A stretch of DNA of 16,053 nt from a virus. The stretch lies in UHGV virus genome UHGV-0060588, one strand, 5' to 3'. Under the pieces are notes generated by a model. That model was not told where the DNA came from, ran no database searches, and saw only the letters and a list, made by a program, of their open reading frames with translations. Shown here one piece after another: positions 1 to 14,218 of this stretch. The translations under genes and the position numbers were made by a program. Numbering within the stretch: the first letter of the stretch is position 1; the number at the start of each line of letters is the position of its first letter.

Positions 1-12
1 TAAGATTCATGT
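1..12 (-). CDS. 5' end (first 4 codons) of a leftward gene that runs off the window
   Basis: Minus-strand ATG at 12..10 preceded by AAAGGGGAAAC (GGGGA Shine-Dalgarno, 4-nt spacer). Only the start is visible, so the product is unknown. Confidence 0.25.
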
Positions 13-33
13 TTCCCCTTTCTCGATAAGTAA

Positions 34-56
34 AGCCCCGCCTTAAAGCGGGGCGC
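34..56. terminator. GC-rich stem-loop GCCCCGC-N6-GCGGGGC, possible terminator or 5'-UTR structure
   Basis: 7-bp perfect stem seen directly. On the minus strand it is followed by TTTACTTATC and then the SD/ATG of the leftward gene; there is no clean U-tract on either strand. Confidence 0.35.
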
Positions 57-319
57 TAGTCCTTATCATTTAAACATAGAAACGGCGTAATCTCAGTAAA
101 CCAGTTACTTTTTACACAAGCAATAGAGTATGGCCCTTCCGAACGCGTCAGCGTAACTACACTCAGGACTTACGTCCAGCTCCGTTACCTGCCGCGCCGC
201 GGTCGCTTGCTCATACTTCACAAGCTCAGGTGGAGCTTATCATATTTTTAGTGAAAAGTCAAATATTCGAATAGTTTATTCCAACATTTACAATTGAGTG
301 GAATAACTGGAATACGTAA

Positions 320-348
320 ATAAATAGTTTGCGCGCACCAACATAATA
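320..348 (+). promoter_or_regulatory. sigma70-type promoter P1 (TTGCGC-N17-TACTAT) for the clamp-like gene
   Basis: -35 TTGCGC at 320-325, 17-nt spacer, -10 TACTAT at 343-348, in an AT-rich leader 37 nt upstream of the ATG. It shares the core AATAGGGTACTATTCA with two minus-strand promoters elsewhere in the window. Confidence 0.5.
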
Positions 349-384
349 GGGTACTATTCAGTTAACTTAAACAGGAGATGAGAA

Positions 385-944: not shown

Positions 945-1280
945 TTAGTAACCTTCGCCCGCCGCATTAACAGTCAGAGACAGAGCCTCTTCCGGGGCGT
1001 TCACCACTTCCTTCCCGTCTTTGTACCAGGTCAGTACATACGGCGCTTTACCCGCCTTAACCTCGACAGTGATAGTCGCACTTCCGTCCGCCAGTTCAGC
1101 GCCCTGCGGTTGTACAGAGAAATACACATCTCCAGCGTCAGCCAGATACGGAACCTCGTAAAGCATACCCGCCGCAGGGAGTGCGATACCGGTTTTATCT
1201 GCAAACGGCATATCATCTACCGGTGTACCTAGTACACTTTCGTCTTCAATAAACACCACGTTCTCACCAGAGCCAGACAC
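945..1280 (-). CDS. Ig-like (Big-type) domain protein, 111 aa as drawn; true start uncertain
   Basis: Sequence has an Ig-like beta-sandwich flavour (ATITVEVKAGKAPYVLTWYKDGKEV). The track start is a GTG with no SD, and the frame stays open 28 codons further upstream without any ATG/GTG/TTG. Confidence 0.5.
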   Translation of the reverse strand: MSGSGENVVFIEDESVLGTPVDDMPFADKTGIALPAAGMLYEVPYLADAGDVYFSVQPQGAELADGSATITVEVKAGKAPYVLTWYKDGKEVVNAPEEALSLTVNAAGEGY

Positions 1281-1342
1281 ACGGGCGTACTGGACTACGC
1301 GGCGCGCAGGTACATCAGTTACTTTAAAAAAAAGCCCATAAA

Positions 1343-8466: not shown

Positions 8467-8495
8467 AATATAATAGGGTCTAGGATAATAGTCAA
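8467..8495 (-). promoter_or_regulatory. sigma70-type promoter P4 (TTGACT-N17-TATATT) driving the accessory operon
   Basis: Minus-strand -35 TTGACT (plus 8490-8495), 17-nt spacer, -10 TATATT (plus 8467-8472), between the lysis-operon terminator and the first accessory gene. Confidence 0.5.
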
Positions 8496-8517
8496 CTAGT
8501 CATTACGGAAAATAGAT

Positions 8518-12043: not shown

Positions 12044-12072
12044 CTTCTCTCTCCTCTCGTTTGTGTAAATGA

Positions 12073-12101
12073 ATAGTAACCTATTCTATCCTAGCGTGCA
12101 A
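12073..12101 (-). promoter_or_regulatory. sigma70-type promoter P2 (TTGCAC-N17-TACTAT)
   Basis: Minus-strand -35 TTGCAC (plus 12096-12101), 17-nt spacer, -10 TACTAT (plus 12073-12078). Shares AATAGGTTACTATTCA and the downstream AAACGAGA with P3. Confidence 0.55.
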
Positions 12102-13077: not shown

Positions 13078-13274
13078 TTCGCCCCTTTGAATTTAAAATT
13101 GTTGCCTATGAGCTTCATTTCATACTCTCGGTAATACGCCGTGGAACTTAACCCGTGCTCCCTGAGTAAGCTAACGACATAAGAACTTCGGTACACTGTC
13201 GATTTCTTTTCAATAATACCTAAGCTACCGTACATCGTTTTCACCAACTGACCCTTCCTAAACATAACCCTCAC
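13074..13274 (-). CDS. hypothetical protein, about 63-66 aa, first gene downstream of promoter P3
   Basis: Track ORF starts at GTG 13274; an in-frame ATG at 13265 follows GAGGG. Lys-rich. Confidence 0.45.
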   Translation of the reverse strand: MRVMFRKGQLVKTMYGSLGIIEKKSTVYRSSYVVSLLREHGLSSTAYYREYEMKLIGNNFKFKGAK

Positions 13275-13299
13275 TCATCTGTCTCGTTTCGATAAGTGA

Positions 13300-13328
13300 A
13301 TAGTATCCTATTATGTTGGGGTGTGCAA
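13300..13328 (-). promoter_or_regulatory. sigma70-type promoter P3 (TTGCAC-N17-TACTAT)
   Basis: Minus-strand -35 TTGCAC (plus 13323-13328), 17-nt spacer, -10 TACTAT (plus 13300-13305). Near-identical core to P1 and P2. Confidence 0.55.
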
Positions 13329-13400
13329 GAAAATAGTTACGTTGCCGTTGTGATTCTTCAGGTAGGGTTGTGCCTTTATTCTTATTACTTGGTAACTAAA

Positions 13401-13421
13401 GGGCAGGCCCTAAGCCTGCCC
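13401..13421. other. GC-rich hairpin GGGCAGGC-CCTAA-GCCTGCCC in the divergent intergenic region
   Basis: 8-bp perfect stem with 5-nt loop and A/T-rich flanks on both sides; lies upstream of P3, so it is not an obvious terminator of any annotated gene. Confidence 0.35.
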
Positions 13422-13575
13422 ACTAATCGTTACATTTTTACGGTTGCGAATCTACGGCACATTAAGAAAATCAGATACTTAAGAGATATGCTGCCGATGA
13501 GAATAGAGCTTGCCCAGGGCAACCGGAGATACTAAGGAAGGAAAGTTACAATAATTCTAATGTTCAGTAAGCCTG

Positions 13576-13609
13576 TGTTTAACCCTTTGCTTGACGCACG
13601 GGTTAAACA
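13576..13609. promoter_or_regulatory. 10-bp perfect inverted repeat TGTTTAACCC-N14-GGGTTAAACA (candidate operator)
   Basis: Exact reverse-complement arms at 13576-13585 and 13600-13609 with TTGACG in the spacer, in the 450-bp divergent intergenic region upstream of the plus-strand HTH gene. Confidence 0.4.
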
Positions 13610-13698
13610 TTCTTACAAGGTGAACAAGAATAAAAGTAACTAAGATATAGAAGCACCTTAAACGAAGATTTCCATAATGTCAATAGGTGCGATTATGT

Positions 13699-13727
13699 TT
13701 GATTTCCCATTATTCGCAATGTATACT
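13699..13727 (+). promoter_or_regulatory. candidate sigma70 promoter (TTGATT-N17-TATACT) for the rightward operon
   Basis: -35 at 13699-13704 and -10 at 13722-13727, about 33 nt upstream of ATG 13760. Does not carry the AATAGG-TACTATTCA core of P1-P3. Confidence 0.4.
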
Positions 13728-13759
13728 TGGTTTCGTTGACTGATAATGAGGGTTTGAGA

Positions 13760-13930
13760 ATGACACAGAATGAGGTAGCTGAGCGTATTGGGGTTACTCG
13801 CCGCACGCTTAATAACTGGTTAAAGAGTGGGAAGTTCCCGGATTGTTGTATCCGCATTATGGGCCGCCGCCAGCCCGGTACGTTTGACCCAGAGAAAGTG
13901 GAAGCGTGGATTAAGGAGAACGTTAAATGA
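13760..13930 (+). CDS. small HTH DNA-binding regulator (AlpA/excisionase-like), 56 aa from ATG 13760
   Basis: MTQNEVAERIGVTRRTLNNWLKSGKFP matches the AlpA/Xis-type HTH pattern. GAGGG SD 7 nt before ATG 13760 (the track starts at 13727). Confidence 0.6.
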   Translation: MTQNEVAERIGVTRRTLNNWLKSGKFPDCCIRIMGRRQPGTFDPEKVEAWIKENVK

Positions 13931-14160
13931 CCGAGTTCCAGTCACGCGTATTTACGGCGGTCGTTTCGTTAACCCGCAAAAAAGGGTCGTGCAGCGTTAT
14001 GGACTTGCGCCGTAGTTATTTTAAGTACTATAGTTCCGCCATTATTGAAGGGTCGTTGAAGGTACTGGTTAAATCGGGTGTCGTGAAAAACGTTGGTGGG
14101 AAATATGGTGCTGTTGCTGAAGTTCGCGGAATGGCTGCTACTTTAGAAGACCTGGAATAA
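13927..14160 (+). CDS. hypothetical protein, 77 aa
   Basis: ATG overlaps the upstream stop (ATGA). Possible winged-helix-like segment, not assignable. Confidence 0.5.
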   Translation: MTEFQSRVFTAVVSLTRKKGSCSVMDLRRSYFKYYSSAIIEGSLKVLVKSGVVKNVGGKYGAVAEVRGMAATLEDLE

Positions 14161-14218
14161 AAGAAAGCCCCGACGTTAGAGCGCCGAGGCCAAATTACTT
14201 GCTGAAGGAAATACAACA

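Follow-up and report, generated by a model that had tools for sequence, protein, structure and literature searches.

We analyzed a window of 16,053 nucleotides (nt), the whole stretch of DNA available from the virus genome UHGV-0060588. The window is 89-97% identical to Kagunavirus phages of Escherichia coli and shows more distant similarity to Jerseyvirus phages of Salmonella; it belongs to a Kagunavirus-like, strictly lytic siphophage (both genera are Guernseyvirinae). The subject of this analysis is the interval at 13266-13759, where two long transcription arms diverge and which constitutes the largest gene-free stretch of these genomes: 485-494 bp separate the start of the first leftward gene (ATG at 13265 or GTG at 13274) from the ATG (13760) of a gene encoding a helix-turn-helix (HTH) protein. 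The leftward arm begins with many small genes annotated without a function and, in the complete map of phage Bas73, runs on into the lysis, terminase, and portal genes. The rightward operon leads from the HTH gene through a gene for a 77-amino acid (aa) protein to an AAA_25 helicase-primase.

The original prediction for this DNA, made from the sequence, had described the interval as a long non-coding control region and had proposed three roles for it: an operator hub controlling the replication operon, a small RNA locus, or an origin of replication. Every feature that it listed was found where it had been placed, and its leftward promoter “P3” corresponds to P_L1 below. The GC hairpin consists of GGGCAGGC (13401-13408) and GCCTGCCC (13414-13421) with the loop CCTAA, and the palindrome has perfect 10-bp arms, TGTTTAACCC (13576-13585) and GGGTTAAACA (13600-13609), with a 14-nt spacer and TTGACG at 13591-13596. 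The recurring words, all on the plus strand, are GTAACTAAA (13392), GATACTTAA (13474), GATACTAAG (13528), and GTAACTAAG (13636). The first rightward gene indeed encodes an HTH protein, and its operon runs into the helicase-primase gene. The features of the locus are as follows:

13297-13328, minus strand: P_L1, TTGCAC (13328-13323)-N17-TACTAT (13305-13300), predicted promoter of the leftward genes, located in the repeated motif TGAATAGTAnCCTATTAT (13297-13314)
13393-13421, minus strand: GC hairpin (hairpin 1) with T-tract, GGGCAGGC-UUA-GCCUGCCC then UUUAGUUA, the intrinsic terminator-like end of a predicted leftward RNA
13471-13546, minus strand: most conserved core of region type A (one of five types, A-E, into which the region sequences were sorted), with a small hairpin at 13510-13522, two repeated words, and a CU-rich stretch
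13544-13641, minus strand: long imperfect inverted repeat of ~98 bp with a variable tip, which would make up the initial ~100 nt of the leftward RNA
13576-13609, no strand assigned: the 10-bp palindrome of the original prediction, which forms the hypervariable hairpin at the tip of the long inverted repeat
13655-13683, minus strand: P_L2, TTGACA (13683-13678)-N17-TAAGGT (13660-13655), a promoter not noticed before, predicted start near 13648
13699-13727, plus strand: P_R, TTGATT-N17-TATACT, found by consensus scan, predicted start near 13734, in front of the HTH/winged-helix/helicase-primase operon
13760-13930, plus strand: HTH_17 (excisionase/MerR-like) gene, 56 aa; Pfam HTH_17, E = 2e-7; PHROG 66, “excisionase and transcriptional regulator”
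13927-14160, plus strand: 77-aa putative winged-helix gene (AlphaFold2 [AF2] model), encoding the second small putative DNA-binding protein of the module

Conservation, predicted promoters, and base pairing in the interval

The 495-bp interval matched 448 phage records, 299 of which cover at least 80% of it. Salmonella jerseyviruses are 75-81% identical to the interval over 86-100% of its length; the adjacent 77-aa protein shows only 65-70% amino acid identity, and the non-coding DNA is therefore at least as constrained as its coding neighbors. Conservation is patchy, with near-invariant blocks at 13471-13546, 13563-13572, 13613-13627, 13634-13641, 13677-13689, and 13699-13712 and at TATACT (13722-13727). 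The view of the interval as a long non-coding stretch held up: it contains no conserved open reading frame (ORF), substitutions among 33 homologous type-A sequences show no 3-nt periodicity, and the indels are not multiples of three. An ORF starting at a shared GTG (13296), annotated as a 106-aa coding sequence (CDS) in Bas73, spans 79 aa here and from 14 to 116 aa in relatives. Accordingly, the combination of a conserved open frame and codon periodicity that marks protein-coding DNA was not found in the interval.

A search for tRNA and tmRNA genes gave none, and nothing similar to the interval was seen in E. coli genomes. When IMG/VR and GTDB genomes were scanned for exact words (14-mer and 16-mer, respectively), the scans returned almost exclusively chance matches, with about six additional real loci and no bacterial homolog. 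In a literature search, no experimental work on the region was found and nothing beyond automated promoter and terminator lists; BASEL, fBC-Eco01 (PMC9825357), and other papers give predictions for it, and a genome-reduction paper deals with other phages.

The middle region of the interval is exchangeable among types A-E. Type A shares short homologous stretches with types B and C. Two recombinants delimit the exchange: locus L031 combines a type-B HTH gene and a type-B second gene with a unique middle region, the breakpoint being at the -35 element of P_R, and locus L011 combines type-A proteins and a type-A right half with a type-B hairpin-1 module. The left block is 94-99% conserved in nearly all compared Kagunavirus loci, whichever type follows.

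Two predicted sigma70-type promoters stand back to back at the right end of the interval, with the -35 elements of P_R and P_L2 15 bp apart. The hexamers of P_R are invariant in 33 type-A sequences, and P_R is the top position weight matrix (PWM) match at the corresponding position in all five types; it is annotated as a promoter in the record of phage PVP-SE2. P_L2 is represented by TTGACT-N17-TAAGCT in types B and C, TTGACA-N16-TAAAAT in type D (11/12 in the consensus scan; L007), and TTGAAA-N18-TATAAT in type E, with unrelated spacers of 16-18 nt; within type A, AATGTCAATAGGTG at P_L2 is invariant. In nine representatives of the types that were scanned for promoters, P_R and P_L2 were always among the top three PWM sites, and they took the two highest ranks in every representative except that of type D. 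The site equivalent to P_L2 is annotated as a promoter in phage Jersey and was predicted as host promoter HP3 in fBC-Eco01 (PMC9825357 Table S2).

About 250 nt downstream of predicted P_L2, the position of which is kept in five types, the GC hairpin lies on the same strand. Read on the minus strand, its 9-bp stem includes 7 G-C pairs and closes a 3-nt loop; the hairpin is followed by TTTAGTTACC (5 T in 8) and was flagged as terminator-like in our scan; the leftward RNA would thus end with the GC hairpin and then UUUAGUU. This is the G+C-rich stem-loop followed by a U-rich tract that is typical of an intrinsic terminator, and no T-tract follows the hairpin (13401-13421) on the plus strand. The same sequence was predicted as terminator T19 in fBC-Eco01 by ARNold (PMC9825357 Table S2). 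Hairpin 1 occurs in six variants, in which one stem pair changes from C-G to U-A on both sides, and all variants of the form found here (hairpin 1a) keep the stem and TTTAGTTAC. The other region types have a different GC hairpin at this position; in types B-D, there is an outer stem, GAGUAC/GUACUC, followed by UUUU.

Immediately past this hairpin, the left block contains TGAATAGTATCCTATTAT (13297-13314). The corresponding 18-nt motif, TGAATAGTAnCCTATTAT, is present in four copies in the window (343-360, 8485-8502 [weak], 12070-12087, and 13297-13314), compared to 0.04 expected. The three good copies are located 24-32 nt upstream of a start codon and contain TTGCRC-N17-TACTAT reading toward that gene; we therefore take the left-block copy to be P_L1, the promoter of the leftward genes. 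The spacer of the motif is conserved and partly palindromic (AATAG..CTATT), which suggests coordinate control by some factor. In fBC-Eco01, seven copies of the motif are listed as “phage promoters” (PMC9825357). The degenerate copy at 8485 may instead be part of a TTGACT promoter that reads leftward. In phage Jersey, which is without the hairpin-1a terminator segment, P_L1 is degenerate, as if the leftward genes were fed from P_L2.

The reported palindrome is the tip of a much longer structure. The long inverted repeat has AGUUAC/GUAACU as its base stem; the middle stems follow, then a bulge (CACCUU), another stem (GUAAG/CUUAC), and the variable tip. Across all type-A loci, 16 distinct sequences occupy the tip position; they fall into several unrelated groups, and all form hairpins of -10 to -26 kcal/mol. 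Examples are TGTTTAACCC..GGGTTAAACA, TGCTTAACCC..GGGTTAAGCA, CGCTTAA..GCTGCGCGCAGC..TTAAGCG, CCGCC..GGCGG, and GCGTTTCCGC..GCGGAACCGC; the change from the first of these pairs to the second is compensatory, with the pairing kept. Below the tip, one pair of the lower stem is A-U in E. coli phages, G.U in most Salmonella phages, and G-C in three phages, a neighboring pair alternates between G-C and A-U, and the change from TGTTCA/TGAACA to TGTTTCA/TGAAAC is a compensated insertion of one base per arm. These stem changes were read from individual folds because the MAFFT alignment of the tip-less arms misaligned the 3′ arm between genera. Altogether, about 30 distinct folded variants share a single long-hairpin architecture. 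In 500 dinucleotide shuffles of the interval, a perfect inverted repeat with arms of at least 10 and a loop of at most 20 arose in 0.8%, and at least two inverted repeats with arms of at least 8 arose in 3%.

The consensus structure computed with RNAalifold from 27 sequences has 46 pairs, with 99.1% of the cells paired, compared to 31-43% when the partners were slid by 1-3 columns. Three pairs are altered on both sides, and 16 cells are changed on both sides vs 4.7 in shuffles, a comparison to which the covariation tool attaches the warning that related sequences may exceed such shuffles without any structure. Folding of the window sequence gave an unusually stable structure for the predicted leftward RNA (minus strand; z = -4.1) vs z = -1.5 for the plus strand. 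Judged from these substitution patterns, both structures singled out in the original prediction, the GC hairpin and the palindrome, are under selection for pairing rather than for sequence.

Next to the long inverted repeat, the core at 13471-13546 is near-invariant across the E. coli and Salmonella phages. Its helices CGGCA/UGCCG and UUAAG/CUUAA are retained through G.U changes, and the CU-rich stretch CUUUCCUUCCUUAG (minus strand, 13530-13543) is unpaired in the predicted fold.

A paralogous unit in front of the late genes and the flanking genes

A second copy of this arrangement is present at the left end of the window:

1-262, minus strand: paralogous unit comprising TTGACT (262-257)-N17-TAAGCT (239-234), a structured RNA of ~200 nt, a terminator, and then the spanin gene

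The first ~165 nt of this unit align, with 75% column identity, to the middle regions that types B and C have at the studied locus, and its promoter has the same hexamers as the type B/C P_L2. The ~200-nt stretch opens with a hairpin of ~110 nt and ends with the predicted terminator GCCCCGC-UUUAA-GGCGGGGC (54-35) followed by UUUACUUAUC (the T-tract can also be written TTTACTTATC). The ribosome-binding site and ATG (10-8) of an Rz-like spanin, the first gene of the head/tail (late structural) arm, follow directly. In fBC-Eco01, the promoter and the terminator of this unit were predicted as HP1 and T7, respectively (PMC9825357 Table S2). There is no room for a promoter between the terminator and the spanin gene; therefore, late transcription apparently has to pass this predicted terminator, unless it reads in from upstream across 911-931. 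After a RusA-like gene, positions 911-931 form an inverted repeat with perfect arms of 10 bp, AAGGCCCCAT-A-ATGGGGCCTT, the counterpart of which was predicted as a bidirectional terminator in fBC-Eco01 (PMC9825357).

The counterpart of the HTH gene was reported as an early gene in an RNA-seq study of phage K1B4, which gives gene-level classes only (PMC12645636). In two loci (L017, 1905-2040, and L019, 1598-1736), P_R and the HTH gene are separated by an extra ORF of ~45 codons, the insertion point of which is precisely the HTH start codon. The AF2 model of the 77-aa protein (pLDDT 78) has an H-H-H-E-E layout (H, helix; E, strand), and its best structural matches are LexA N-terminal domains (TM-score 0.65-0.68), at a weak E of about 0.02; on the basis of this model, the protein is predicted to be a winged helix. 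The “UvsX-like” label attached to this gene in some records looks wrong. Only loci of type A have the 77-aa gene; its place is taken by a gene for a distantly homologous protein of 91 aa in type D and for an unrelated protein of 96 aa in types B, C, and E. Sequence searches of the PDB with the helicase-primase and the HTH protein were uninformative.

Three further observations concern the two arms. Between the 77-aa and helicase-primase genes, a strong terminator-like hairpin lies on the minus strand (14166-14191; GGCCTCGGCGCTCTAACGTCGGGGCT and TTCTTTTATT); located inside the rightward operon, it may stop antisense transcription or act on the plus strand without a T-tract. The Bas73 genome (L169) contains three identical near-consensus TTGACA-N17-TATAGT sites within the replication arm and oriented with it (26884-26912, 31216-31244, and 33934-33962), which may be internal early promoters. 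In phage PVP-SE2 (L003), an unannotated homolog of the leftward gene of the window (MLKKGQLV...; about 1150-1336, minus strand) accounts for part of a “900-bp gene-free” stretch of the RefSeq record.

A proposed leader or small RNA and its alternatives

We put at about one in two the probability that the interval is a central divergent promoter hub consisting mostly of a self-contained, exchangeable, minus-strand non-coding transcription unit whose product, as a terminated leader or small RNA, gates transcription of the leftward and late genes. Under this scheme, host RNA polymerase would start rightward at P_R to transcribe the HTH, winged-helix, and helicase-primase operon and leftward at P_L2 to produce an untranslated RNA of ~255 nt, from about 13648 to 13394. 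The RNA would fold into a hairpin of ~98 nt (13641-13544) with the palindrome at its tip, followed by the CU-rich single strand (13543-13530) and by the core with its small helices, and would end at the GC hairpin and U-tract, acting as an intrinsic terminator or attenuator. P_L1, just past this terminator, would drive the leftward genes, and read-through by antitermination or partial termination would set the transcription and timing of the operons that follow, as at lambda P_R'-6S RNA-tR'. Once released, the RNA may in addition function in trans, for example, via the CU-rich single strand; such a role ranks equally with that of a leader in cis. Our computations establish the conservation of the unit, its pairing constraint, its promoter- and terminator-like signals, its modularity, and its paralogy; we infer the firing of P_L2, the identity of the transcribed strand, termination, and the regulation of downstream genes. 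Among the three roles originally proposed, the small RNA locus is the one favored by the evidence (a conserved leftward promoter, covarying hairpins, a terminator-like hairpin, an exchangeable unit, and a paralog at 1-262).

Several points weigh against this interpretation. All promoters and terminators discussed here are predictions. By PWM score alone, P_L2 is unremarkable, with 18 sites scoring at least 11.5 in the full genome of a relative vs 12-22 in shuffled genomes; the score on its own was accordingly rejected as promoter evidence, the full genome being similar to shuffled sequence, and positional conservation alone was used. The equivalents of hairpin 1 in types B, C, and D and in Jersey were not flagged as terminators. 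The unit has no match in Rfam: the whole window gave none against Rfam 15 at the gathering score, and a permissive search of 13200-13800 returned hits at chance level only (E about 7-8). Scanned against Pfam and PHROGs, 12 small proteins encoded next to the locus included no known antiterminator, of the Q family or otherwise, and the Bas73 annotation lists none; with no Q-like protein among these neighbors, a put-like mechanism or a new factor would therefore be required. The remaining points concern the transcribed strand. The G.U pairs of helices common to both strands are mostly on the minus strand, but plus-strand folding finds its own wobble-supported helices, and the consensus folding energies of the two strands are nearly equal. 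A strand call from counts of G.U vs A.C, which had seemed to favor the minus strand, was discarded after a reciprocal analysis showed that it was biased by the strand folded. Hairpin 1a pairs better on the plus strand in two phages (L003 and L038), where its G.U pairs are on that strand. The same is true of hairpin 1b, an additional or alternative hairpin of Salmonella phages (GCGCTTGCC-GNRA-GGCAAGTGC; L004, L003, and other Salmonella loci), which has a fixed G.U pair and GNRA loops (GUAA, GCAA, or GUGA) solely when read on the plus strand, opposite to the strand favored for the rest of the unit. Finally, in several E. coli variants and in type D, a T-tract adjoins the tip hairpin on the plus strand.

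Among the other explanations, an origin of replication ranks first, and it is nonetheless unlikely. Here, the interval would be the loading site of the helicase-primase, with the inverted repeat, the words, and the promoters as structural, iteron-like, and transcription-activated elements. Such a role would suit a stretch that adjoins replication genes, has a GC content (0.40-0.41) below that of most of the window, combines a long inverted repeat with clustered direct words and flanking promoters, and is followed by genes for small DNA-binding proteins that could be origin binders. Transcription-activated origins, such as those of T7 and T4, have strong flanking promoters. The cumulative GC-skew minimum of the window also falls at 13200-13600, but it coincides with the switch in gene orientation and therefore carries no independent information on an origin. 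There is no perfect DnaA box (TTWTNCACA) in the interval, and one-mismatch matches in the window number 22 vs 25 expected. Regular iterons of 17-22 bp are absent, the 9-nt words being 82, 54, and 108 bp apart, and no longer direct-repeat family was found. Nor does the region type follow that of the helicase-primase: helicases that are 96-98% identical carry type A or type B, and a helicase with 56-58% identity carries type B. The middle region is, moreover, exchanged independently of the adjacent proteins, and the homologous unit at 1-262 precedes late structural genes, far from the replication genes. A further lead, GGTGAACA at 13619, which matches the iteron of the P4 alpha protein on the reverse strand, was dropped: there were only two loose copies, a chance-level result, and the helicase is of the AAA_25 type.

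The strand-related observations above also count toward an RNA on the plus strand, alone or as a partner in a convergent sense/antisense pair, which we place behind the origin as another improbable alternative. A plus-strand promoter-like site, TCGATA-N17-TATGTT (13290-13318), would direct transcription through hairpin 1 that ends at the palindrome tip and overlaps the leftward RNA. The two transcripts would interfere with each other, like those of the convergent promoters in coliphages 186 and P2. The site recurs in the left block of all types, and the plus-strand features of hairpins 1a and 1b, the T-tracts past the tip, and the similar folding energies of the two strands would all be accommodated. 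However, its scores are modest (8.5-10.7), the motif in which P_L1 is embedded faces the downstream gene in all three good copies of the window, as befits a leftward promoter, the T-tract after the tip is absent in Salmonella phages, and the plus-strand fold of the window sequence is not unusual (z = -1.5 vs -4.1 for the minus strand).

The operator hub of the original prediction survives in part: the conserved divergent promoters P_R and P_L2, together with P_L1, make the interval a promoter hub, and regulation of P_R or P_L2 by the HTH protein or the 77-aa winged-helix protein is plausible. As an explanation of the interval as a whole, with the palindrome, the repeated words, or both as operators through which one of these proteins controls the replication operon, it is very improbable. 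Two small proteins of the DNA-binding type are encoded immediately downstream, and in most phages, a different region type comes with a different HTH recognition helix (RRTLNNW, RQTINNW, or TMTLNRW) and a different second gene. Direct-repeat arrays serve as binding sites for excisionase-like regulators (P2 Cox and 186 Apl are examples), and the interval has four words in the same orientation within 253 bp. Matches to the pattern RWWACTWAR, which was set after the words had been seen so that the enrichment is overstated, fall there in four of nine cases, all on the same strand, compared to 4.1 expected on both strands of the whole 16-kb window; the words are irregularly spaced, and the cluster is partly present in other types. 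The palindrome does not behave as the operator of the HTH protein: in 16 phages with a 100% identical HTH protein, several unrelated sequences are found at its position, with the pairing kept. It is located about 45 bp from the nearest -10 element (P_L2, 13655-13660) and about 90 bp from the -35 element of P_R (13699) and thus neither overlaps nor abuts a promoter core. In L031, type-B proteins are accompanied by a different middle region, which reduces the linkage with the HTH protein to the P_R core. Given the unrelated tips next to identical HTH proteins and the recombinants L031 and L011, HTH recognition most likely takes place in the P_R core, not at 13576-13609, and these comparisons do not support the palindrome as the operator of the HTH protein. 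The TTGACG in the loop of the palindrome is not conserved; as a -35 element with TACAAG as -10 (score 9.0), it was rejected, being missing from other tip variants.

An unannotated small protein gene can be dismissed as extremely improbable: although the interval contains one ORF of 79 aa (13296-13535) and another of 27 aa (13560-13643) and some GenBank records annotate CDSs in it (Bas73_0055, K22_047, and an SB15 ORF, which look spurious), the variable frame length, the indels, and the lack of codon periodicity described above speak against it, the 27-aa ORF lacks a conserved start codon, and most annotators leave the region empty.

Four results bear on these phages: the strong constraint on their largest gene-free stretch, the two back-to-back predicted promoters, the reinterpretation of the hairpin and the palindrome as parts of a separable non-coding unit, and the second copy in front of the late genes. 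If the leader or small RNA exists, it would offer a direct handle on the early-to-late switch and would explain the spurious ORF annotations in this region; if it does not, the palindrome is still removed as a candidate operator, and the search for the HTH site narrows to the P_R/P_L2 core. Phages of both genera are common; they find use in therapy and biocontrol and have been proposed as synthetic biology chassis. More tentatively, and with considerable doubt, we suggest that Guernseyvirinae carry a previously undescribed family of exchangeable, structured leader RNAs of 200-260 nt, each with its own sigma70 promoter and terminator and with at least two per genome (early hub and late operon), that would function as a temporal switch, either through put-like or factor-dependent antitermination in cis or as regulators in trans, with the hypervariable tip as the specificity determinant.

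Comparison with known systems

Several known phage control regions resemble the interval in part. Like the lambda ori iterons and the T7 primary origin with its promoters and AT-rich segment, it is an AT-richer non-coding segment with repeats and promoters beside a helicase-primase operon; unlike these origins, it has neither regular iterons nor DnaA boxes, its type is independent of the helicase type, and it has a homolog at the late operon. The switches of P2 (Cox at Pe/Pc) and 186 (Apl at pR/pL) likewise combine an HTH_17/excisionase-type protein with close opposing promoters and direct repeats. However, P2 and 186 are temperate and have a repressor gene on the opposite arm, whereas a non-coding unit opens that arm in the phage studied here, in which the repeats also do not follow the HTH type.

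Short non-coding RNAs made from self-contained promoter-to-terminator units in control regions, modular and type-specific as here, are known from lambda (oop), P22 (sar), P4 (CI RNA), and P1/P7 (c4). These RNAs are 70-200 nt long and are antisense to, or processed from, a defined target, whereas neither a target nor an antisense partner gene is evident here and the phage is strictly lytic; the CU-rich single strand of the predicted RNA is a candidate seed at most. The put RNA of HK022, which brings about antitermination without a protein by means of promoter-proximal stem-loops, is similar to the studied unit in that it is a structured RNA just past an early promoter and before terminators, with pairing under selection, but it consists of two stem-loops of ~30 nt with defined features, in contrast to one hairpin of ~98 nt and a core.

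The lambda P_R'-6S RNA-tR' region comprises a sigma70 promoter, an untranslated RNA of about 200 nt, and an intrinsic terminator upstream of the lysis and structural genes. Unlike in lambda, no recognizable Q-binding element or pause signal was found, P_L1 follows the studied copy, and the studied RNA is dominated by a hairpin of ~100 nt, comes in exchangeable sequence types, and has no sequence similarity to its lambda counterpart. The layout itself is shared: the studied unit lies upstream of the leftward arm, which leads toward the lysis and packaging genes, and has the same series of promoter, untranslated segment, and strong terminator before downstream genes, with an extra promoter after the terminator. 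The clearest likeness to lambda is that of the paralog at 1-262, where the predicted promoter, ~200 untranslated nt, and strong predicted terminator stand directly before the late genes.

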